Source: Candidatus Aenigmatarchaeota archaeon (GTDB lineage: Archaea > Aenigmatarchaeota > Aenigmatarchaeia > QMZP01). Taken from it: a stretch of 57,683 nucleotides of DNA. The DNA lies in contig WAQT01000059.1 of the NCBI GenBank assembly GCA_015520105.1, positions 1 through 57,683 of the forward strand, given 5' to 3'. Both the position numbers and the translations under genes were made by a program. The notes beneath the pieces were generated by a model. It was not told where the DNA came from. It searched no databases and saw nothing but the letters and a program-made list of their open reading frames with translations. This document shows, piece by piece, positions 18,396-34,920 of this stretch. How positions within the stretch are numbered: position 1 is the first letter of the stretch; each line of letters opens with the position of its first letter.

Positions 18396-19769
18396 TCAGA
18401 AATATATATCCCTTTCGCCGTTCTCTATCCTTTCAAGCCGTATGCGCGTCTCTTTCCTTGCAGAGGGGTCCTCTATCATTGAGAGATATTTCTTTATAAT
18501 CTCCTCTCCCAGCCTCCTGGTTTCGGGAGAGGCGTAGTCCTCAAGGTATTCTTTGAACGTCAGTATTGCGTTCGGTCTGCAGAGATTGTGTATCTCTCCA
18601 GGCTTGGCGAGATCCATGAACGCCTGGCCCGTTCTTCCCTTTCTGTAGCAGGCAGTGCAGAAGCTCGGGAGGAGTCCCTGGCGAAGGACATCCCTTACAA
18701 CCTCGTCCACGCTTCTTTCGTCGTGGATGCTGAATTGGGAAACACCCTGCTTCTTTCCGTATCCTCCGGGGGAGGTTCTGGATGCAGCGGATGTCTGCGA
18801 TATGCCTATCTCGAACGCTTTTTTCCGTATCTCAGGCCTCTCCCGCGTGGATATTATCATCCCGGTGTAGGGAACTGCCATCCGCAGTATCGCTATTATC
18901 CTGAGAAGTTCATTCTCTGATACGGGGTGAGGAGGCTCTTTCCATGCAACCCCGTCAGCAGGCTGCCATCTCGGTACAGAGAATGTATGCGGCCCGACTC
19001 CGTATTTCCTGTCAAGATAGTGCGCATGCGAGACAAGCGCAAGCACCTCGAACCTGTAGTCATACAACCCGAACAGAACGCCAAGACCAAGGTCATCTAT
19101 ACCTCCCCTGAACGCCCTGTCATGGGCGAACAGCTGCCTCTCATAATCGGCTTTCGGGCCGTTGTGGAGGGACTCAAAGCTCTTCCTGTGATAGGTCTCC
19201 TGAAAAAGCTGGTATGTCCCGATTCCCGCCTCCTTGAGCTTTCTGTAGTTCTCTGTCGTGGTCGCGGCTATGTTCACGTTTACCCTGCGTATCTCTCCGC
19301 GTCCCGATTTTGTATTGTATATCGTCCTGATTACGTCAACAACATAGTCTATGTCATTGAGTTCCGGATGCTCCCCGAATTCCAGAAGGAGACGCTTGTG
19401 CCCCATTGCCTCCAGAATTCTGGTCTGCTCCCTCACCTCCTCGAGGGAGAGTCTTTTCCTCCGCTTCCTGTTGCTTCTCCTGAACCCGCAGTATTCGCAG
19501 TCATTGACGCAGTGGCTCGAGACGTAAAGGGGTGCGAACAGAACGAGCCTCTCGCCGTATATGTCACGTTTTATCTTGCCCGCTGTCCTGAACATCCTGC
19601 TTTCGTATTTTCTGTCCGCATTGAGGAGAATGGAGACGTCCTGAAGGGAGAGACCCTTCTTCTGTCCCGCTTTTTTAAGGACATTCTCGATGTCCCTTTT
19701 TGAAGGGCTTCCCGTGTCTGCAAGAATCCCTTCTATCTCTTTCTCGTTAACTATCCTTTTCGCATCCAT
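18396..19769 (-). CDS. hydG: [FeFe]-hydrogenase H-cluster radical-SAM maturase HydG
   Basis: FAPLYVSSHCVNDCEYCGFRRSN (CX3CX2C), MGHKRLLLEFGEHP, and the HydG-specific C-terminal CX2CX22C (CTACYRKGRTGQAFMDLAKPGEIHNLC). Confidence 0.9.
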   Translation of the reverse strand: MDAKRIVNEKEIEGILADTGSPSKRDIENVLKKAGQKKGLSLQDVSILLNADRKYESRMFRTAGKIKRDIYGERLVLFAPLYVSSHCVNDCEYCGFRRSNRKRRKRLSLEEVREQTRILEAMGHKRLLLEFGEHPELNDIDYVVDVIRTIYNTKSGRGEIRRVNVNIAATTTENYRKLKEAGIGTYQLFQETYHRKSFESLHNGPKADYERQLFAHDRAFRGGIDDLGLGVLFGLYDYRFEVLALVSHAHYLDRKYGVGPHTFSVPRWQPADGVAWKEPPHPVSENELLRIIAILRMAVPYTGMIISTRERPEIRKKAFEIGISQTSAASRTSPGGYGKKQGVSQFSIHDERSVDEVVRDVLRQGLLPSFCTACYRKGRTGQAFMDLAKPGEIHNLCRPNAILTFKEYLEDYASPETRRLGEEIIKKYLSMIEDPSARKETRIRLERIENGERDIYF

Positions 19770-21050
19770 CTAAACACCAAGGTCTGTCGGGGCTCTCCCT
19801 ATTGAATGGAGAAGCTCCACTGTCTCGCTTATGTTCCTTTCTATTTCCTTGTCCCTGTCCGGCCTTCCCGGATATATGGTGTAATTCTCCCTGTATCTTC
19901 TGGGGGTAACGTTTATCATCAGGGAGTTGGCACCGGCAAGGAGGCCTTTCCTCTTTCCGTCCCTGTGAAGAGTCTCAAGAGCTGTGGTGACGAGTATCTT
20001 GGCATTCCTGTCGGCGAATCTCGATGCCGCGATAACCTTGAGAGCAAGGTTCAGGTCCGGAGGCGAACAGGACGCCAGAGGCGTCTGGGGGTGCTGTATG
20101 AATGGACCGAAGGACCACATGTCTGCCCTCAGCTCCCTTGTAAGGAGTATGTCATCGGCCAGGTCCTCCAGTGTCTGGCCAGGAAGGCCTATCATGAATC
20201 CCGTGGCAACTATGTAGCCAATCTCCTTGCAATGTCTTATGAGGGAGAGCCTCTCGTCAAAGTCCGCCTTCCTTCCATGGTGGAGGGAGGAGTAGAGCCT
20301 CCTGTTTGATGTCTCGAAACGGAGAAGTATCCCCCTCGCCCCTGCATTGTACATCCTTTCATACGTCTCCCTGCTTCTTGTTCCCACGCTCATGAACAGG
20401 AGGGCGTCGCATCTCTCCCTTATCTTACTTATGGTTTCCTCGAGAATCTGGGGGGTGTAGAAGGGGTCCTCTCCGGACTGGAGGACCAGCGCCCTGAAAC
20501 CGAGGTCGTTCACCGCATGCTCAGCGGCATTGGCTATCTCTTCAACTGTCATCCTGTACCTGCTCATCCGGGCATTGCTCTTCCTCAGCCCGCAGTAGAA
20601 GCAGTCGTTCCTGCAGTGGTTGGAGAACTCTATAATCCCGTGCACGCAGCAGGCATTCTCAAGGCTTTCCTTCCTCAGGGAGTTCGCGGTGCTGAACAGG
20701 TTGTTGAGATCCCTGTCAGGAGTCTTGAGTATGGAGAGTATTTCCTTCCTGGCTATGTTTCCGTTCTCAGCCTTCCTGACAAACTTTTCCAGCTTAGCTT
20801 CTTCAGGAGCGCGGGAGAAGGAATCGTCCCTCTTCTTCAGCTCGAAGAACAGCTCCTTCCAGGCATCGAGCGTCTGCCTGGCTTCCTCCTCAGGAACCTT
20901 GGCTATCACGAAGCCGCCTTGGGCATAGGCATAGTCTCCGACAGAAAGATTCTTAATCTCGTTGATGGCCCTCCTTCTTTCCCCGAAATAGTCTATTACA
21001 GCCCTGTTTCCCTCGAAAGCAACAACCCTTCCGGGTATGGCGTAGCACAT
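19770..21050 (-). CDS. hydE: HypC-domain / HydE fusion: an N-terminal HypC/HupF-like chaperone domain joined to the [FeFe]-hydrogenase radical-SAM maturase HydE
   Basis: Residues 1-72 (MCYAIPGRVVAFEGNRAVIDYFGERRRAINEIKNLSVGDYAYAQGGFVIAKVPEEEARQTLDAWKELF) follow the HypC pattern, including Cys2. The remainder matches HydE along its length: IIEFSNHCRNDCFYCGLRKSN, RYRMTVEEI, VLQSGEDP, LLRFETSN, GFMIGLPGQT, GPFIQHPQTPLA, TPRRYRENYTIYPGR. Confidence 0.88.
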   Translation of the reverse strand: MCYAIPGRVVAFEGNRAVIDYFGERRRAINEIKNLSVGDYAYAQGGFVIAKVPEEEARQTLDAWKELFFELKKRDDSFSRAPEEAKLEKFVRKAENGNIARKEILSILKTPDRDLNNLFSTANSLRKESLENACCVHGIIEFSNHCRNDCFYCGLRKSNARMSRYRMTVEEIANAAEHAVNDLGFRALVLQSGEDPFYTPQILEETISKIRERCDALLFMSVGTRSRETYERMYNAGARGILLRFETSNRRLYSSLHHGRKADFDERLSLIRHCKEIGYIVATGFMIGLPGQTLEDLADDILLTRELRADMWSFGPFIQHPQTPLASCSPPDLNLALKVIAASRFADRNAKILVTTALETLHRDGKRKGLLAGANSLMINVTPRRYRENYTIYPGRPDRDKEIERNISETVELLHSIGRAPTDLGV

Positions 21051-24192: not shown

Positions 24193-24924
24193 TCATTTCG
24201 CTTTCTTCTGGTCTTTCTCCTCAAACTCCTCAAGCTTCTCCTCTTCGGGAAGCACTTCCTCAGCAATCTTGCTAATCTCGTCATCTGCATCCTGCCTCTT
24301 GGCTGGGGCACTCTCCTCTCCTTTTCTCTTCTTTGTTATCTCTCCTGTTATCTCCTGAAACTCCTTCATTATCTTCACTTTCACCCCTATCTTTCCGAGT
24401 TTGACAAGGGCCTCCTCAAAACCGTAATCCACAAGCGTCTTGGCCGGCTCTCCGCAGTGCTTGAGGTAGCCCTCCACAAACTTGGAGGACATGCTCTTTC
24501 CTCCTCCCATCTTTCCTGATATTATTATCTCAGCACCCACTGCCCCGGCATCCATTATCCTCTTTATCGTGAGATTCCCTATCTTCTTGAAGTTATAGCC
24601 TCTCTCAAGTGCGGAGGCTATCTGCTTTGCCACTATCTTTGCGTTGAGGTTGGGATTCCTTATCACCTTGACATCGAGCTGGGGGTTGTCGAGGCCGAAC
24701 CTCTGCTTTATGGCATCTGTCATCTCGTTTATGGTCTTTCCTCCCCTTCCTATTATCCTTCCAGGCTTGTGCGTGTATATCAATATCTTCACACCGAGGG
24801 GGGTTCTTTTTATCTCAGTGCCGGCATAATCTCCCTGAGGGAAGTGCTTTCTTATGAACTCCTCTATCTCAACCTCCTTTATTCCCTGTTTGACGAAGTA
24901 TTCCTTGAGCAGCATGCTATCCAC
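24193..24924 (-). CDS. rps3: Ribosomal protein uS3
   Basis: KH domain GRIIGRGGKTINEMT. The track start is a GTG; ATG at 24915 preceded by GGTGGA is an alternative. Confidence 0.9.
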   Translation of the reverse strand: MDSMLLKEYFVKQGIKEVEIEEFIRKHFPQGDYAGTEIKRTPLGVKILIYTHKPGRIIGRGGKTINEMTDAIKQRFGLDNPQLDVKVIRNPNLNAKIVAKQIASALERGYNFKKIGNLTIKRIMDAGAVGAEIIISGKMGGGKSMSSKFVEGYLKHCGEPAKTLVDYGFEEALVKLGKIGVKVKIMKEFQEITGEITKKRKGEESAPAKRQDADDEISKIAEEVLPEEEKLEEFEEKDQKKAK

Positions 24925-25141
24925 CGCACCCCCTCTCGCAGGTCTTTACTATATCAACCCTGTTCCTGTTATGCACAGCCACATCCGGAACTTCATATCC
25001 CGGAACTCCGAAGAACCTGTACACCCCATCCTCTTCCGACGGCTCTATGCCCAGCCGCGCGGCTATTCCCTGAGCGAGAATCTCGTCTCTCGTGATTATG
25101 TCATACTTCTTGAACGGGTTTATGTCATGCTCTCCTGTCAT
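24917..25141 (-). CDS. Unrecognised 74-aa ORF inserted between uL22 and uS3
   Basis: MTGEHDINPFKKYDIITRDEILAQGIAARLGIEPSEEDGVYRFFGVPGYEVPDVAVHNRNRVDIVKTCERGCGG. GAGGTGA lies 5 nt before its ATG, directly after the uL22 stop. Its own stop overlaps or abuts the uS3 start. Confidence 0.55.
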   Translation of the reverse strand: MTGEHDINPFKKYDIITRDEILAQGIAARLGIEPSEEDGVYRFFGVPGYEVPDVAVHNRNRVDIVKTCERGCGG

Positions 25142-25549: not shown

Positions 25550-25933
25550 TTACTTGAGCGGAACATATTTGGATGACTTGGTCGCTCCGAATCCCGGTGC
25601 AGAGTGTCTGACCTGCTTTCTCGTGAGCGCATAGTCCCCGAGCCTGTCGCCGAGCATCTCAGGCTTTATCTGCACAGGCACGTATTCCTTTCCGTTGTAC
25701 ACGCCTATCTTCACCCCTATCATCTCCGGGATTATGACCATGTCCCTCGCATGGGTCTTATGAAAAGCGTTGGGATTCTTTCTTATGTCGAGGAGAAGCT
25801 TTTTCTGCAACTCTGTCAGGCCTCTCTTCAGGGCTCTCCTGCTTCTCGAGGGGATGAGCTGGGAAAATTCCTCCATGCTCATCTTCCTGAGCTCTTCCAG
25901 CGGTTTTCCCTTGTAGGTGAATTCTCTTGCCAT
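25550..25933 (-). CDS. rps19: Ribosomal protein uS19
   Basis: HARDMVIIPEMIGVKIGVYNGKEYVPVQIKPEMLGDRLGDYALTRK is typical of S19. Confidence 0.9.
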   Translation of the reverse strand: MAREFTYKGKPLEELRKMSMEEFSQLIPSRSRRALKRGLTELQKKLLLDIRKNPNAFHKTHARDMVIIPEMIGVKIGVYNGKEYVPVQIKPEMLGDRLGDYALTRKQVRHSAPGFGATKSSKYVPLK

Positions 25934-25937
25934 TCTC

Positions 25938-26035
25938 TTCGCCTTGTGACTTTAACTACGACTTTATGACTATCACTCAGTCCAACATATTGCTGCTGCC
26001 TGTTCGATCGATGTTAGCAGCCCAGCTCTCCTGTG
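25938..26035. repeat. Repeat copy A (diverged, ~80% identical to copies B and C) in the uL2-uS19 spacer
   Basis: Starts TTCGCCTTGTGACTT and ends CTCCTGTG. Retains the internal hairpin GCTG-CTGC / GCAG-cc-CAGC with a 17-nt loop. Confidence 0.85.
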
Positions 26036-26048
26036 CGACAGTTACGGA

Positions 26049-26078
26049 GACTGCACAGGCAATCGGTTCGGTGCAGTC
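26049..26078. repeat. Hairpin module H1 (stem GACTGCAC/GTGCAGTC, 14-nt loop AGGCAATCGGTTCG)
   Basis: Flanked by the conserved GACAGTTACGGA...CCAG. Covaries with H2 and H3. Confidence 0.85.
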
Positions 26079-26089
26079 CAGCTCACCAA

Positions 26090-26113
26090 CGCCTTGTGAC
26101 TTTCACTCCATGT
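26090..26113. repeat. Internally deleted mini-copy of the repeat (CGCCTTGTGACTT...)
   Basis: Shares the first 13 nt of the repeat, then jumps to the pre-hairpin GTGACAGTGACGGAG segment. Confidence 0.7.
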
Positions 26114-26125
26114 GACAGTGACGGA

Positions 26126-26155
26126 GACACGACGTGAAAACGGTTCGGTCGTGTC
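26126..26155. repeat. Hairpin module H2 (stem GACACGAC/GTCGTGTC, 14-nt loop GTGAAAACGGTTCG)
   Basis: Same flanks and geometry as H1 and H3. Confidence 0.85.
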
Positions 26156-26255
26156 CAACTGACTTCGCCTTCCGACTTGCAATGCACATTTTCTTTGCGC
26201 ATGCGAGCGTGAGCGCATGGTTTCAGTGAGTTATGCGTTCCGTGCTATATAAGCT

Positions 26256-26927
26256 TTACTTCTTCCTCCTTCCGGAACGCCTCGGTGATATCGAGCCGAC
26301 CTTTCTTCCGGGCGGCGCGTTCCTGGAGACGCTCTTGTGTTTTCCAAGACCGCTGTACCCAGCTCCGAACGGGTGGTCGACAGCGTTCATCGCGACTCCG
26401 GACGTTCTTGGATAGAGCTTTCCTCTCCTGTGCATAGCTATCCATTTCTTTCCTGCCTTGAGCATCGGTTTCTCCTTCCTTCCCTCCCCCGCAGGCACGC
26501 CAACCGTAACCCTGCAATCTGGATGAAGCTTCTTGGTTTTCTTTGACGGAAGCTGGATTATGCACTCCTTCTCGCTTCTTGCGACAACTATCGCGGCGGA
26601 GCCCGAGGTTCTGCACAGTTTCGGACCGGAATTCGGATATGTTTCTATCGAAAAGACTTTTGTTCCTTCGGGGACCTGCGAAACAGGCATTACGTAACTC
26701 TTAAGGTTCTCTCCCACCTTCATGCCCTCCGGGGCTATTATATATCCTTTGTTCCCATCAGCGTACTCCACCACAGCAAGGGGAGCGTTCATGAGAGGAT
26801 AGCTTATTATATCAACGACCTTCCCGCCGACCGGCCTGTAGGCTACCAACGGCTTGAACTTCCTCTCCGGCACCCTGTACGTGAGGGTGCCTCTTCCCCT
26901 TCTCTGCTGTATTATTCTTTTTCCCAT
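26256..26927 (-). CDS. rpl2: Ribosomal protein uL2
   Basis: MGKRIIQQRRGRG..., GVAMNAVDHPFGAG. Start moved to MGKR; the track's upstream extension runs into the repeat. Confidence 0.9.
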   Translation of the reverse strand: MGKRIIQQRRGRGTLTYRVPERKFKPLVAYRPVGGKVVDIISYPLMNAPLAVVEYADGNKGYIIAPEGMKVGENLKSYVMPVSQVPEGTKVFSIETYPNSGPKLCRTSGSAAIVVARSEKECIIQLPSKKTKKLHPDCRVTVGVPAGEGRKEKPMLKAGKKWIAMHRRGKLYPRTSGVAMNAVDHPFGAGYSGLGKHKSVSRNAPPGRKVGSISPRRSGRRKK

Positions 26928-26928
26928 C

Positions 26929-27029
26929 CTTTCGCCTTGTGACTTGAACCTACGACCTTGCAACTACCACACTACGCAACATGCTGCGACTGCCTGTTCA
27001 TCCTGTGTTAGCAGTCCAGCTTTCCTGTG
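26929..27029. repeat. Repeat copy B (101 nt, identical to copy C), ending 1 nt from the uL2 start codon
   Basis: Character-by-character identity with 27080..27180. Internal hairpin GCTG-c-GACTGC / GCAGTC-CAGC (26983..27020) with a 17-nt loop. Confidence 0.95.
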
Positions 27030-27042
27030 TGACAGTGACGGA

Positions 27043-27072
27043 GACGTGACGTGCAATCGGTTCGGTCACGTC
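27043..27072. repeat. Hairpin module H3 (stem GACGTGAC/GTCACGTC, 14-nt loop GTGCAATCGGTTCG)
   Basis: Lies in the 50-nt spacer between copies B and C. Same flanks as H1 and H2. Confidence 0.9.
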
Positions 27073-27079
27073 CAGTTTT

Positions 27080-27180
27080 CTTTCGCCTTGTGACTTGAAC
27101 CTACGACCTTGCAACTACCACACTACGCAACATGCTGCGACTGCCTGTTCATCCTGTGTTAGCAGTCCAGCTTTCCTGTG
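27080..27180. repeat. Repeat copy C (101 nt, identical to copy B)
   Basis: Period 151 nt relative to copy B. Begins 4 nt after the stop of the 27185..27373 ORF in minus-strand orientation. Confidence 0.95.
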
Positions 27181-27184
27181 CGAG

Positions 27185-27373
27185 TTATCTTATCTCTTCC
27201 ACTATTCTGACCTTTGCCATGTATTCGTCCAGAGCGGTTATCTGGAACCAGTACAGCGTTCCATCGTCCGCCCTGACGAGATAGTGCTCCCCAACCACGG
27301 GATTGTGGAATTTCTCCTTTCTTATGTAGAGGTTTCCCACTGGTTGTATCGGATAGGGATTATGAGCGTCCAT
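27185..27373 (-). CDS. Unrecognised 62-aa ORF inserted between uL23 and uL2
   Basis: MDAHNPYPIQPVGNLYIRKEKFHNPVVGEHYLVRADDGTLYWFQITALDEYMAKVRIVEEIR. The context TGAGGCTGATATG places a GAGG SD 6 nt before the ATG, overlapping the uL23 stop. The track start 27394 would overlap uL23. Confidence 0.45.
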   Translation of the reverse strand: MDAHNPYPIQPVGNLYIRKEKFHNPVVGEHYLVRADDGTLYWFQITALDEYMAKVRIVEEIR

Positions 27374-27380
27374 ATCAGCC

Positions 27381-27662
27381 TCACAGCATTCCAAGCCTTG
27401 AAGCGATGTCAGCTGCAGAGTAGTCGGGATGCAGCCTGACGTACGCCTTCTTCTCGCCCTTTCTCGTTATCTCAAGATTCACCTTGCTGACCCTGACATC
27501 GAATATTCCTTCAACCTCTCTCTTCACATCCTTCTTTGTAGCATTTCTTCTGACTATGAACACCAGCTTGTTCTCCATTTCTACAAGGTTCATGGATTTC
27601 TCTGCAAGATGGGGATGCATCAGGAATTTCCACTGCGCCGACTGGGTATTCTTCTCTGCCAT
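27381..27662 (-). CDS. rpl23: Ribosomal protein uL23
   Basis: KLVFIVRRNATKKDVKREVEGIFDVRVSKVN is typical of L23. Confidence 0.9.
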   Translation of the reverse strand: MAEKNTQSAQWKFLMHPHLAEKSMNLVEMENKLVFIVRRNATKKDVKREVEGIFDVRVSKVNLEITRKGEKKAYVRLHPDYSAADIASRLGML

Positions 27663-28613: not shown

Positions 28614-29594
28614 TCACTTAAGCCATAGCACATCGACATCATCTGTCCTCTCGTTCGGGTATATATCAGGTTTCACTGTTCTATTGCCTGAGGAGTATGA
28701 GAGAATTCCTGTCCATGCAATCATCGCGCCGTTGTCTCCTGAGAACTCCTTCGGAACGGAATGGAATCTCGCTCCCCTCTCCCTGCACATCGTTTCAAGC
28801 ATTTCCCTGAGCCGGGAATTGGCAGCCACGCCTCCCGTGACTATGACCTCGTCCTTTCCTGTATGCGAAAGGGCTCTCTCTGTCACCTCGGTCAGCATCG
28901 CAAAAAGCGTCTCCTGGAGGGAGAAGCACACATCCTCAAGTTTCTCTCCTGATTTGAGTTTTCTGAGCGCCTCTGTAACTATGCCTGAGAAGGAGAGGTC
29001 CATTCCCTTCACCGTGTAGGGAAGTTCTATGTATTTTCTCGACTCCCGAGCGAGCCTCTCTATCTCCGGGCCAGCCGGAAAGCCAATGCCAGCGCTTCTC
29101 CCGAACTTGTCGAGGGCGTTGCCTATGCCTATGTCCATTGTCTCGCCGAACGTCCTGTAGCGGCCTTCCGAGAAGGACAGGACCTGCGTGTTTCCTCCGG
29201 AGACGTAGAGCACAACCGGGTCCCTTGCTTTTGTGAAGAGTTTTGCTATCTCTATATGCGCTATGCAGTGGTTCACTCCAACAACAGGTATTCCATTCTC
29301 TTTCGAGAACCGGAGAGCGGCGTCCAGGCCTTTTCTCAGGCAGGGAGGAAGTCCCGGACCATGCGAATATGCGACGAGGGATATGTCTTTGGAAGACAGG
29401 CCAGCCTTCAGGAGGCCGGACTCCACGATTTGGGAGGAGACCCTTTCATGATGCGCGGCAGCGTCTGCAGGCTTTATTCCCCAGCCCTTCGGCGGGACAT
29501 ACGTATCCGAAACATTGGAAAGAACCTTTCCGTCAGAGGACACGATGCCTGCGCCGAACGTGTGCGCAGTGCTCTCTATTCCAAGGCATATCAT
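28614..29594 (-). CDS. kae1: tRNA N6-adenosine threonylcarbamoyltransferase Kae1
   Basis: MICLGIESTAHTFGAGIV, VNHCIAHIE, VTGGVAANSRLREM, FSGDNGAMIA. Start set at MICLGIEST. The 168 upstream codons of the track ORF run into the start of the opposite-strand antiporter gene (29670..31358). Confidence 0.9.
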   Translation of the reverse strand: MICLGIESTAHTFGAGIVSSDGKVLSNVSDTYVPPKGWGIKPADAAAHHERVSSQIVESGLLKAGLSSKDISLVAYSHGPGLPPCLRKGLDAALRFSKENGIPVVGVNHCIAHIEIAKLFTKARDPVVLYVSGGNTQVLSFSEGRYRTFGETMDIGIGNALDKFGRSAGIGFPAGPEIERLARESRKYIELPYTVKGMDLSFSGIVTEALRKLKSGEKLEDVCFSLQETLFAMLTEVTERALSHTGKDEVIVTGGVAANSRLREMLETMCRERGARFHSVPKEFSGDNGAMIAWTGILSYSSGNRTVKPDIYPNERTDDVDVLWLK

Positions 29595-29669
29595 GCAATC
29601 ACTTCCTTCCTTTTGACAAGTTTCCAATTTATTTAACCCGGCGCGCGCATAAATATATAAACAGATAGA

Positions 29670-31358
29670 ATGACGAACGCTCTTCTTGTTGACATAGGGA
29701 TTATAATAGTATTTGCCACTCTCCTTGCTTATGCTGCAAGGTATCTCAGGCAACCGCTTCTCGTGGCCTACATCGCAACAGGCATTATTCTGGGAAACAT
29801 CACCGGATTCATTGGAAACCTCTCTGAGATAAGCATGCTCGCTGATTTCGGAATAGCGCTTCTTTTGTTCACGATAGGGCTCGAGATAGACGTGCAGAAG
29901 CTCAAGAGCGTTGGGAGGGCATCGTTTATAGGCGGTGTCGTGCAGATAGCAGCCACCTTCTCGCTTGGTTATATAATCTCCCTGGTTCTTGGCCTTGACG
30001 GAGTGACAGGACTCTATATAGGCGCTCTGGTTGCATTCAGCAGCACCATGATAGTGGCAAAGCTCCTCGTGGACAGGAACGAGATAAACACCCTTCACGG
30101 AAGGATAATGATAGGAGTCCTCCTCCTGCAGGACCTTCTTGTGATAATGATGATTCCCGTGCTGAAGAGCATAGACGGCGCCTTTGCTTTCGACGTCTTC
30201 ACGGACTCCATGATAAACGGACTCGGTCTCTTTGCCATCGCAATTGTGCTGAACAGGTTTGTGTTCAGGCCTGTGCTTGACAGGGTGTCCCGTTCCAGCG
30301 AGCTTCTCTTCCTCACCACAGTGTCAGTCGCCTTCGCGTTCATCTCCGTGTCAGCCATATTGAACTTCCCGATAGCGATAGGGGCGTTCTTTGGAGGAAT
30401 AGCGCTTGCGCGGAGCCCCTATAACATAGAGATATACAACAAGATGAGGAGCCTCAGGGACTTCTTCCTCGTGATATTCTTCTCCACGCTCGGGCTTCAG
30501 CTCGATTTCTCCGCTCTTGGAGGAATGTTAAACGAGTTTGTTGTCATTCTTCTCCTTGTGGTTATTGTGAAACCGGTCATCCTCTCGCTTATATACCTGA
30601 TCATGGGTTATGGGGGGAGAACGTCCTCTATAATAGGGCTCGGGATGGGTCAGGCGAGTGAGTTTTCATTCATACTCGCTTCGCTCGGTCTGGCTTTCGG
30701 CCACATCTCGAACGGCGTGTTCTCCCTTATCATAAGCGTGATGATAGTCTCAGCGATACTAACTCCCTACTTCATGAAGTTCAGGAAGCGGATATATGCT
30801 TTTTTTGCCGGGAGGCGTCTTCCGGGAAAGAGATTTTTTGGAAGCCCGAGATACGTGGAAAGGATACAGAGGAAACCCGGCGACGGCTTGAGCAACCATG
30901 TGGTGGTGTTCGGATGCGATGTGATGGGACGGAGGCTTGTGAACTATCTGAAAGGGCTGGGCGTAAAGTTCATAGTGGTGGAGCACAATCCTGAGGTGAT
31001 AAAGGAGCTTGCCGGAGAGGATGTATACGCTCTTTATGGAGATGCGGACAATGAGGAGATTCTGAGGGAGGCAGGAGTGTACAGGGCAAAGATAGCTATA
31101 GTGACTATACCTGATACAGATGTTTCAGGTTTCATCACAGCAAAGGCCAAGAGGCACAATCCCGGAATAAAGGTTTACGCCAGAGCGCATTCAGAGGAGG
31201 ATGCAAGGCTTCTCTACTCCACTGGCGCAGACTTTGTGGTTGTTCCGGACTTCGTGAGCGGCGGAACGATAATAAGGAAGCTCGAAAGCGTGTTCGGGAA
31301 CAGGAGGGCAAGGAACCATTTCAGGCATCTTGATATAAGAAAAAAGAATCATGGATGA
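29670..31358 (+). CDS. Kef-type monovalent cation:proton antiporter (CPA2) with a C-terminal RCK/TrkA-N domain
   Basis: About 12 TM helices (LLVAYIATGIILG...), then a Rossmann segment VVVFGCDVMGRRL...VVEHN. Confidence 0.85.
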   Translation: MTNALLVDIGIIIVFATLLAYAARYLRQPLLVAYIATGIILGNITGFIGNLSEISMLADFGIALLLFTIGLEIDVQKLKSVGRASFIGGVVQIAATFSLGYIISLVLGLDGVTGLYIGALVAFSSTMIVAKLLVDRNEINTLHGRIMIGVLLLQDLLVIMMIPVLKSIDGAFAFDVFTDSMINGLGLFAIAIVLNRFVFRPVLDRVSRSSELLFLTTVSVAFAFISVSAILNFPIAIGAFFGGIALARSPYNIEIYNKMRSLRDFFLVIFFSTLGLQLDFSALGGMLNEFVVILLLVVIVKPVILSLIYLIMGYGGRTSSIIGLGMGQASEFSFILASLGLAFGHISNGVFSLIISVMIVSAILTPYFMKFRKRIYAFFAGRRLPGKRFFGSPRYVERIQRKPGDGLSNHVVVFGCDVMGRRLVNYLKGLGVKFIVVEHNPEVIKELAGEDVYALYGDADNEEILREAGVYRAKIAIVTIPDTDVSGFITAKAKRHNPGIKVYARAHSEEDARLLYSTGADFVVVPDFVSGGTIIRKLESVFGNRRARNHFRHLDIRKKNHG

Positions 31359-34647: not shown

Positions 34648-34920
34648 AGCAGGGCGCTGCCTTGGTGGGCAGTTCCGGAAAAGGCGGTTTACCGCTGACT
34701 CTCCTCCACTCCGCGACCCTTCAAGCACCGCCATTGCGGCTTAGGGCTGCTCGCTTCCGCGCCTGACCCGGTTCACCGCGATAACGGTCCTGAAGGACGG
34801 AGCTTCTCAGTCAAGACAGCGGTTCCGCAATCCCCGTTGCTGCCGCCCTTGGCATTCGGCCCCGCCATAAAGGCGGTTTGCGGTCACAGGGAACGCCTAA
34901 CTCCCCGGCCTAGCCCTGCC
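34648..34920 (-). ncRNA. SRP_RNA: Signal recognition particle (7S) RNA
   Basis: The minus strand begins GGCAGGGCUAGGCCGGGGAGUUAGGCG and ends ...GCGCCCUGCUC, so the termini pair. It contains the helix-8 signature GGUGAACCGGGUCAGGCGCGGAAGCGAGCAGCCCUAAG and a helix-6-like GGCAGCAACGG. The region is GC-rich and non-coding. Ends are approximate. Confidence 0.88.

Follow-up and report, generated by a model that had tools for sequence, protein, structure and literature searches.

Arrays of hairpins with covarying stems in the ribosomal-protein operon of an Aenigmarchaeota archaeon

We identified 2 arrays of short hairpins within the ribosomal-protein operon of an Aenigmarchaeota (DPANN) archaeon. 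They lie on a stretch of 57,683 nt (contig WAQT01000059.1 of assembly GCA_015520105.1, referred to below as the window), a chromosomal contig whose best uL2 homologues bear the name of that group. In these arrays, a hairpin module (H) alternates with a repeat of ~104 nt (R, present as 3 copies and 2 truncated ones), resulting in R-(H-R)n strings in the 2 neighboring spacers on the two sides of uL2. The H hairpins, first noticed in a preliminary description of this DNA, are confirmed and lie far beyond chance, with stems that differ between copies and remain paired. Judging from related genomes, the arrays, together with an unannotated open reading frame (ORF) of 62 aa (ORF62), are a lineage-specific insertion in the uL4-uL23-uL2-uS19 operon and not an ancestral feature. 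Our preferred reading, to which we give somewhat less than an even chance, is that the arrays act as cis-acting structured RNA on the operon transcript, with H serving as operators read through loop and flank and R as a substitute ribosome-binding site.

The H module was identified in 3 copies of 47-53 nt, and a repeat search groups positions 26034-26080, 26111-26157, and 27028-27074 as a single 47-nt family. A covariance model built from the H sequences and run with filters off recovered the 3 copies with 78-83 bits (E = 1e-24 to 1e-26):

27025..27077, minus strand: H3 hairpin module (83.4 bits, E = 2.9e-26).
26031..26083, minus strand: H1 hairpin module, central stem triplet UGC/GCA (78 bits, E = 2e-24).
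26108..26160, minus strand: H2 hairpin module, central stem triplet ACG/CGU (77.6 bits, E = 2.8e-24).

The hairpins sit where the preliminary description had located them inside the ribosomal-protein operon (26049-26078, 26126-26155, and 27043-27072), and the stems that it gave for the plus strand (GAC-NNN-AC / GT-NNN-GTC) were borne out, with the helix reaching 9 bp on the operon sense (minus) strand through a conserved G.U closing base (G.U, G-C, A-U, C-G, NNN, A-U, C-G) around a loop of 14 nt. On this strand, H3 reads CUGGACGUGAC [CGAACCGAUUGCAC] GUCACGUCU, with CCGUCACUGUCACACAG as the flank that comes next. No change was seen in the loop's 5' half (CGAACCG) or in the 3' flank UCUCCGUNACUGUC, 9 loop and 13 flank positions being invariant, so that the conserved loop part and flank of the preliminary description are supported by the alignment. 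This alignment comprised the 3 copies of the window and the H3 orthologue of a related strain (contig L009), all in sense orientation. In it, 100% of helix cells pair across the 9 pairs, and 3 pairs are changed on both sides, as expected from the earlier claim that the 3 central pairs differ in each copy yet pair. None of 500 column shuffles matched the covariation score, and sliding the 3' arm by 1-3 nt reduced pairing to 25-61%. The G.U at the base of H was present in 4 of 4 sequences and corresponds to an A.C mismatch on the opposite strand. No further H copy was identified in the 57.7 kb of the window, where the next-best match to the covariance model had E = 0.18. GTGAC pentamers do recur around the modules as had been reported, with 9 occurrences in the 579 nt of the 2 spacers vs 0.39 expected (~23-fold), although these counts are not independent, the pentamers lying within the repeated units.

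The hairpins are genuine but not free-standing, H being one half of a tandem R-H unit of 151 nt (R, ~104 nt; H, ~47 nt) found in 2 adjacent spacers; the 104-nt R repeats, the 151-nt unit, ORF62, and the absence of the insertion from close relatives had all been missed. In the sense direction, locus A, the spacer between ORF62 and uL2, consists of the ORF62 stop, R3, H3, R2, and the ATG of uL2, and locus B, the spacer between uL2 and uS19, consists of the uL2 stop, CTTATATA, R0, H2, r, H1, R1, and the ATG of uS19. H3 thus belongs to the first of these spacers and H1 and H2 to the second. The remaining components of the arrays are as follows:

26928..27032, minus strand: R2, ~104-nt repeat with its own hairpin (27020-26983), ending in AAGUCACAAGGCGAAAGG directly before the uL2 ATG (26927).
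27080-27183, minus strand: R3, tandem copy of R2 (99-100% identical), beginning right after the ORF62 stop codon.
25934..26038, minus strand: R1, diverged R copy (65% identical to R2), ending in AAGUCACAAGGCGAAGAGA directly before the uS19 ATG (25933).
26087..26110, minus strand: r, an R with its middle deleted, between H2 and H1 (CAUGGAGUGAAAGUCACAAGGCG; member of the 16-nt repeat family).
26163..26245, minus strand: R0, degenerate R-like leader segment; the R-end motif occurs for the fifth time at its 3' end, UUGCAAGUCGGAAGGCGAAG (26163-26178).
26246..26253, minus strand: TATA-box-like CTTATATA, just after the uL2 stop codon.
26042..26218, minus strand: doubtful 58-aa ORF, its start 27 nt past the TATA-like box, whose reading frame crosses H2 and part of H1.

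R carries a hairpin of its own, with arms GCUGGACUGCU..AGGCAGUCGCAGC and a loop of 14-15 nt, which begins with the same CUGGAC as H; RNAalifold gave no other helix in its consensus for R. The R1 hairpin (26026-25989) shows 1 compensatory change from A-U to G-C, and the G.U pairs of the R hairpin would turn into A.C mismatches on the opposite strand. R0 contains a 9-bp hairpin (GCAUGCGCA..UGUGCAUUGC). The arrays are strings of related hairpins with ~14-nt loops and the shared stem base CUGGAC..GUC. The R-end motif, AAGUCACAAGGCG (the last 16 nt of R being AAGUCACAAGGCGAAG), was identified in 5 copies, each immediately before a start codon or an H hairpin, and the 3' end of R holds the Shine-Dalgarno-like AAGGCGAA 4-5 nt before the displaced ATGs of uL2 and uS19, a spacing that matches the GGTGA-type Shine-Dalgarno motifs of neighboring operon genes. 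The fastest change between strains is seen in the R hairpin loops (27008-26994 and 26014-26001, with the corresponding loops of L009, L010, and L023); they often hold short perfect palindromes (TCGATCGA in R1 and GATGCATC in L009), and GGATG is retained in loops of the R2 type. The 58-aa ORF had no Pfam match, was not gene-called in L007 or L022, and reads H2 and H1 in different frames; it is probably non-coding.

The genes around the arrays follow an established order and minus-strand orientation, with both arrays located between co-oriented genes:

28497-27664, minus strand: uL4.
27662-27381, minus strand: uL23.
27373-27185, minus strand: ORF62, unannotated 62-aa ORF.
26927-26256, minus strand: uL2.
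25933-25550, minus strand: uS19.
Downstream of uS19, continuing the ribosomal-protein operon: uL22, a 74-aa ORF, uS3, uL29, and SUI1.

Junctions in this operon measure -8 to 47 nt with 2 exceptions, ORF62-uL2 (257 nt) and uL2-uS19 (322 nt). The preliminary description had given the 322 nt correctly, whereas its range for the other junctions (0-47 nt) has to be revised to -8 to 47 nt, and the 257-nt spacer that houses H3 was not listed. No terminator or second promoter was noted, the TATA-like box common to relatives excepted. In the 5 closest relatives recovered (contigs L001, L004, L005, L006, and L025; uL2 75-79% identical), the uL23-uL2 junction is 8-10 nt and the uL2-uS19 junction 2-45 nt, and ORF62 was absent from all 5. 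It is because of these compact junctions in the closest relatives that we regard the insertion as lineage-specific. At locus A, the ORF62 ATG occupies the position of the uL2 ATG in the relatives, 7-10 nt past the uL23 stop (7 nt in the window), and the uL2 start is now served by the end of R2. At locus B, the relatives hold a TATA-like (C/T)TTATATA directly after the uL2 stop and 22-23 nt before the uS19 ATG (~3836-3843 in L004 and ~4699-4706 in L001); the window retains this box, but ~285 nt of R/H array now parts it from uS19. The conservation of the box suggests an internal promoter that would give near-leaderless uS19 mRNAs in the compact relatives, and in the window it is a candidate internal promoter for which the B array would form a ~285-nt leader. 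Both insertions are bordered by ATG or ATGG, with nothing more shared at their borders.

Of the further copies that the preliminary description had envisaged, orthologues were identified in related strains (L007, L009, L022, and L023), and none at any other locus searched or in GTDB representatives, JGI metagenomes, or IMG/VR. The contigs of related strains that bear on the arrays are listed here with their sources:

L007 (NCBI metagenome-assembled genome, MAG) and L022 (ENA): B array as in the window, apart from 1 and 0 spacer substitutions, respectively.
L008 (ENA): contig ends within R3.
L010 (Logan): begins inside the R1 hairpin loop, with 1 single-nucleotide polymorphism in the loop.
L009 (ENA, another sample): ORF62, then H3 and R2, without R3.
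L023 (ENA): strongly different R1; before it stands the 3' arm of an H-like hairpin (..UCUUGUCUCC), where the contig is cut. The stem triplet of this arm is a fourth variant, and its ..UCUUGUC predicts GACAAGA for the missing 5' arm.

Independent assemblies (NCBI MAG, ENA, and Logan) break in R or right after uL23 in L007, L008, L009, L010, L022, and L024; the recurrent breaks in R are accounted for by the identical R2/R3 pair and the variation between strains. The practical effect is that the repeat fragments metagenome assemblies of this lineage at a phylogenetic-marker locus.

The L009 contig also allowed both the coding and the non-coding parts of locus A to be compared between lineages. 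ORF62 and its L009 orthologue differ at 9 of 189 nt, all of them third codon positions and synonymous, with 0 non-synonymous differences and a proportion of synonymous differences (pS) of 0.23. Because all 9 differences are synonymous, we take ORF62, on this comparison, to be a real gene under strong purifying selection. The non-coding H3 and R2 differ from L009 at 11 of 139 nt, fewer than the synonymous rate predicts (P about 2e-6). Stretches of 38 nt over the H3 hairpin and of 47 nt closing the assembled portion of R2 on its 3' side are identical in both, and 5 of the 11 differences fall in the R hairpin loop. These comparisons speak for constraint acting on the sequence of H and of part of R. 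As for the product of ORF62, no Pfam match was found, and the protein was its own only match among 5.8e9 proteins; a HMMER search against 1.8e9 representatives returned only short matches to beta-hairpin repeats in large proteins, and no viral relatives were identified. AlphaFold2, run on the single sequence, predicted a small four-stranded beta-barrel (predicted local distance difference test score, pLDDT, 79). An RNA-binding role of this product is a lead and not a result.

Which molecule and which strand form the hairpins can be judged in part from the covariation. A dimeric DNA-binding protein needs both half-sites to match its consensus, not each other. The central triplets are specific to each copy and match only their own partner arm, and they are therefore a signature of intramolecular pairing, in RNA or in single-stranded DNA. 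The preliminary description had held a DNA-level inverted-repeat binding site to fit equally well; for double-stranded DNA this is now disfavored, and a double-stranded operator was set aside since arm-to-arm covariation speaks against it. Single-stranded DNA hairpins are possible. The 2 strands, which had likewise been treated as equivalent, are asymmetric: the G.U pairs extend the H and R helices on the sense strand only, and R ends in ribosome-binding regions. Together, these features of the sequence favor RNA of mRNA sense, although they are not proof of it.

We infer that the arrays would be transcribed as RNA within the operon mRNA (window minus strand) and would act there as a string of hairpins with a common stem base, CUGGAC..GUC, and a loop of ~14 nt. 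The H stem would need only to pair, sequence specificity residing in the 5' loop half (CGAACCG) and the 3' flank, in the logic of a hairpin operator that may be read by a trans-acting factor, most simply a protein. R would contribute at its 3' end the replacement Shine-Dalgarno-like motif for uL2 and uS19, whose ancestral initiation regions would have been displaced. The expected regulatory outcome would be tuned translation, or segmental stability or processing of the mRNA, or both, for uL2 and for uS19 with the genes after it. That the beta-barrel encoded by ORF62 is the factor that binds H is only a guess. In its full form, the barrel would bind H via the CGAACCG loop and the 3' flank, gate the translation or stability of uL2 and uS19, and constitute with H a newly evolved, self-contained pair of post-transcriptional regulator and operator that a young lineage would have built into the cell's most conserved operon, which we consider improbable. 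A variant of this last reading, in which a hairpin element targets translation-start regions and carries its own ribosome-binding site, stands on an equal footing.

Several observations weigh against a regulatory RNA of this kind. Taken whole, the spacers are no more stably folded than shuffled sequence (z = -0.25 and +0.61), and sequestration of the Shine-Dalgarno motif or AUG was rejected, the predicted accessibility of both being unremarkable, so that the case rests on the local hairpins rather than a global fold. Template-switch correction of quasi-palindromes is another possible source of perfect stem complementarity, one that needs no selection. The copy number of the 151-nt unit varies between strains, with R3 absent in L009, and the L009 contig is itself a short scaffold with an N-gap, with a uL23 part only 83% identical to the window, which might be chimeric and would thereby weaken the constraint test. 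In L023 (positions 1-125), R1 is ~20% diverged from window positions 25934-26051 (~24 differences in 121 nt), beside only 3 differences in 1164 nt (0.26%) of uS19, uL22, and the 74-aa ORF, the reverse of the pattern in L009 and a sign of weak constraint on R1, of its replacement by recombination, or of a chimeric assembly. Only 1 species-level lineage has the element, and a regulator of essential genes is not expected to be dispensable in all relatives. ORF62 is also without significant relatives: Foldseek returned only generic small beta-barrels with E of 0.03 or worse, and phmmer against the PDB returned only 3 LSm6 chains at E = 0.8-1.

One of the main alternatives is a selfish or neutral low-copy hairpin repeat that acts at the level of DNA, comparable to repetitive extragenic palindromic sequences and bacterial interspersed mosaic elements (REP/BIME), miniature inverted-repeat or palindrome-associated transposable elements (MITE/PATE), or mitochondrial hairpins, an explanation that we regard as unlikely but worth serious weight. 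Such a repeat would have landed in the initiation regions of 2 adjacent genes, tolerated since its 3' end gives a usable ribosome-binding site, and would expand, contract, and recombine by unequal crossing-over, with hairpins whose single-stranded DNA form is recognized by a transposase from another locus or is not recognized at all. This would agree with the presence in a single lineage and absence from all close relatives, with the tandem structure and its strain-variable copy number, with the mosaic R1 that is hyper-divergent in L023 beside nearly identical genes, with the breaks inside R in independent assemblies (L007, L008, L010, L022, and L009), and with the ATG(G) that flanks both insertions; further, REP-like palindromes have been reported to be widespread in archaea (PMC12306157). 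However, no copy was identified beyond the 2 adjacent spacers in 57.7 kb, no transposase or integrase was found in the window, terminal inverted repeats are absent, and patterns of the conserved motifs gave nothing real in public collections (GTDB representatives, JGI metagenomes, and IMG/VR). Conservation of H3 and part of R2 above that of synonymous sites is unlike a decaying insert, unless it was recently exchanged, and 3 stem variants with identical loop and flank in 1 genome are unlike recent copies of a single master element. Improbable in our view is the explanation without any function, in which the covariation is a mutational artefact of quasi-palindromes kept perfect by intrastrand template switching or gene conversion, and loop and flanks reflect recent duplication. 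Only 3 or 4 copies exist, all within 1 kb, the 99-100% identity of R2 and R3 proves recent duplication, and gene conversion is visible in the H3 flank of L009, which has H1-type bases. Against this, differences are unevenly placed, since all 3 central pairs vary while 9 loop and 13 flank positions are invariant, conservation between lineages exceeds that of synonymous sites, and template switching explains the match of the arms, not the complete difference of the triplets between copies.

The 2 other explanations concern the product of the arrays. Independent trans-acting small RNA genes, on either strand and processed out of the spacers, would suit the discrete structured modules, whose conserved single-stranded loop could base-pair with a target, and TTTTCTTT follows H3 on the plus strand; yet no archaeal promoter motif precedes any unit except the shared TATA-like box after uL2, a T-run occurs at H3 only, C/D and H/ACA features and Rfam matches are lacking, and the G.U pairs favor the mRNA-sense strand, all of which makes this account quite improbable. 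We give very little credence to translation of the modules, as micro-peptides of 25-41 aa with the pattern LDxTEP(I/F)(A/S)xxVSVTV.. encoded in the H frame or as leader peptides that melt the hairpin. The 3 H modules are open in the same relative frame with the variable triplets exactly at codons 3 and 10, the Shine-Dalgarno-like AAGGCGAA stands 5-8 nt upstream of each H, whose first codon would be CTG or TTG, and outside the stem some substitutions between copies are silent in this frame (GCA/GCC, GTC/GTA, and GAA/GAG). Coding, however, gives no reason for codons 3 and 10 to be reverse complements of each other, and the likeness of the peptides follows automatically from nucleotide conservation. 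Moreover, CTG is a poor start, H1 has no canonical in-frame start codon upstream, the stops and tails of the peptides are wholly different, and the 58-aa ORF changes frame between H2 and H1; gene callers predicted nothing, and no protein homologue was found.

We searched for known classes of RNA and mobile elements in the window and the spacers. The lack of a match to tRNA, C/D, or H/ACA RNAs stated in the preliminary description was upheld and extends to Rfam families. With Rfam 15 at gathering thresholds, only the archaeal signal recognition particle (SRP) RNA was identified in the window, and permissive filters applied to 25850-27450 returned only a chance atpB match inside the uL2 coding sequence (16 bits vs a threshold of 37.4, E = 1). 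ARAGORN found 0 tRNA genes, and no match to the tRNA clan was obtained at E of 10 or better. Origin of R from a tRNA fragment was rejected, because R1 does not share the D-arm-like and T-loop-like features of R2; the T-loop-like GGUUCAAGUC of R2 has no complementary T-stem and is not conserved in R1. No RUGAUGA of C/D box small RNAs was identified on either strand of either spacer, the nearest C-box match being AGGAUGA in the variable loop of R2 and R3, without a D box partner. H/ACA RNAs were rejected since the 9 bp of each H stem run without interruption, leaving no internal loop or pocket. Pairing at long range between GAACC in the H loop and GGUUC in R was likewise rejected, as it comprises only 5 bp and is not conserved in R1. 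Replication origin recognition boxes (ORB), type III toxin-antitoxin RNAs, and diversity-generating retroelements did not fit the anatomy.

Among mobile elements, MITEs were rejected because of missing terminal inverted repeats, with only ATG/ATGG common to the insertion borders; no inverted repeats of at least 12 nt were identified in 25800-27500, where the R and H units are direct repeats. A CRISPR array was rejected since R and H are both repeated, in only 2-3 units and without Cas domains, and an integron attC site since H is a single 30-nt hairpin and no tyrosine recombinase was found in the window, core-site motifs having been checked by eye only. The ~50 largest ORFs of the window contained no transposase, integrase, or Cas domains and are housekeeping genes, including RadA, PolB, Topo VI, Rad50, HerA, RPA, and a class-V aminotransferase. 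Searching both spacers with blastn-short against the window and all loci returned only self, paralogous, and orthologous copies. The strict H pattern had 0 matches in GTDB species representatives, IMG/VR, and JGI metagenomes, and the R 3' pattern had 0 matches in GTDB representatives and IMG/VR; a looser H pattern gave 9 matches in JGI metagenomes, all of them high-GC chance matches without stem complementarity. These collections do not include the genome of this organism, as seen from its own copies not being returned, and copies on its other contigs are therefore possible. The window represents ~5% of the genome, so that zero copies in the rest of it excludes only more than about 50 dispersed copies. 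Blastn of the element against plasmids and phages found nothing, viral contigs were likewise without similarity, and a peptide query from the antisense frame of R/H, aimed at mis-called ORFs, found nothing.

The closest analogues of the arrays are intercistronic hairpins of the REP/BIME type and hairpin operators that occur several to an untranslated region. With REP/BIME they share short GC-rich hairpins clustered with other repeat motifs in intercistronic spacers and a strain-variable copy number, and the H element is, as these are, a short imperfect palindrome in a presumably transcribed intergenic region. REP/BIME elements are transcribed with their operon and have a known role as determinants of mRNA stability and processing. 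In contrast to the 2 adjacent loci known here, with no transposase found in the window, they occur in tens to hundreds of dispersed copies, many tied to REP-associated tyrosine transposases (RAYT), and the long (14 nt), sequence-conserved H loop is untypical of REPs. Iron-responsive elements and other protein-bound RNA hairpin operators resemble H in their conserved loop and flanks, varying but paired stems, and several copies per untranslated region next to regulated ORFs, whereas H is archaeal and lacks sequence or structural homology to them; only the logic is alike, and an H-binding protein is putative. Autoregulatory leaders of ribosomal proteins, including the bacterial S10/L4 leader and the archaeal L1 operator, are likewise structured RNAs in untranslated regions just upstream of ribosomal-protein start codons. 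Known leaders occur singly, imitate an rRNA site, and are shared across whole phyla or orders, whereas the H/R element is repeated and belongs to 1 species-level lineage. Neither the window nor the related contigs recovered contain an rRNA of this organism. Assignment to this class was rejected, since the element lacks clade-wide conservation and is absent from relatives with uL2 75-79% identical. Repetitive and double-hairpin elements of organelles, such as those of sponge mitochondria, are short hairpin repeats that invade intergenic regions of very compact genomes (PMC2800124). The arrays resemble them in lineage-specific presence and rapid turnover and differ from them in being known from 2 junctions only, the organelle elements being numerous and dispersed.

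Few stretches of DNA are known to be as compact and conserved as the ribosomal-protein operons of reduced DPANN genomes. A young insertion of ~0.75 kb kept under selection in such an operon is therefore unusual, and this one joins an orphan gene with all-synonymous changes to hairpins with covarying stems and frozen loops. To our knowledge, very few cis-regulatory RNAs have been described in archaea. If the hairpins are operators, they would show the origin of new post-transcriptional control on essential archaeal genes. If they are a selfish repeat, they would show that an element of this kind, by supplying a ribosome-binding site of its own, is able to establish itself exactly at start codons.

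Further features of the window were identified outside the arrays:

34648-34920, minus strand: archaeal SRP RNA (RF01857, 176 bits), the sole Rfam family above threshold in the window.
24917-25141, minus strand: 74-aa ORF between uL22 and uS3, without a Pfam match, overlapping the uS3 start by 8 nt.
19770-21050 and 18396-19769, minus strand: 2 adjacent radical-SAM/BATS proteins that resemble HydE/HydG or BioB.
28614-30098, minus strand: Kae1/TsaD homologue, a mechanically called ORF of 494 aa with the TsaD domain at residues 192-462.

A 68-aa homologue of the 74-aa ORF (shared KYDI..LGIEP) was identified at the same position in L004 (4650-4856) and was absent in L001 and L006; the 74-aa ORF is thus a second small gene wedged in the operon in this clade. 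The protein encoded at 19770-21050 has a HupF/HypC domain fused N-terminally, a fusion unusual for a DPANN genome. The Kae1/TsaD gene as called in L008, a contig of the same species, encodes 326 aa, and the long N-terminal extension of the ORF in the window is probably an artefact of choosing the most upstream GTG.

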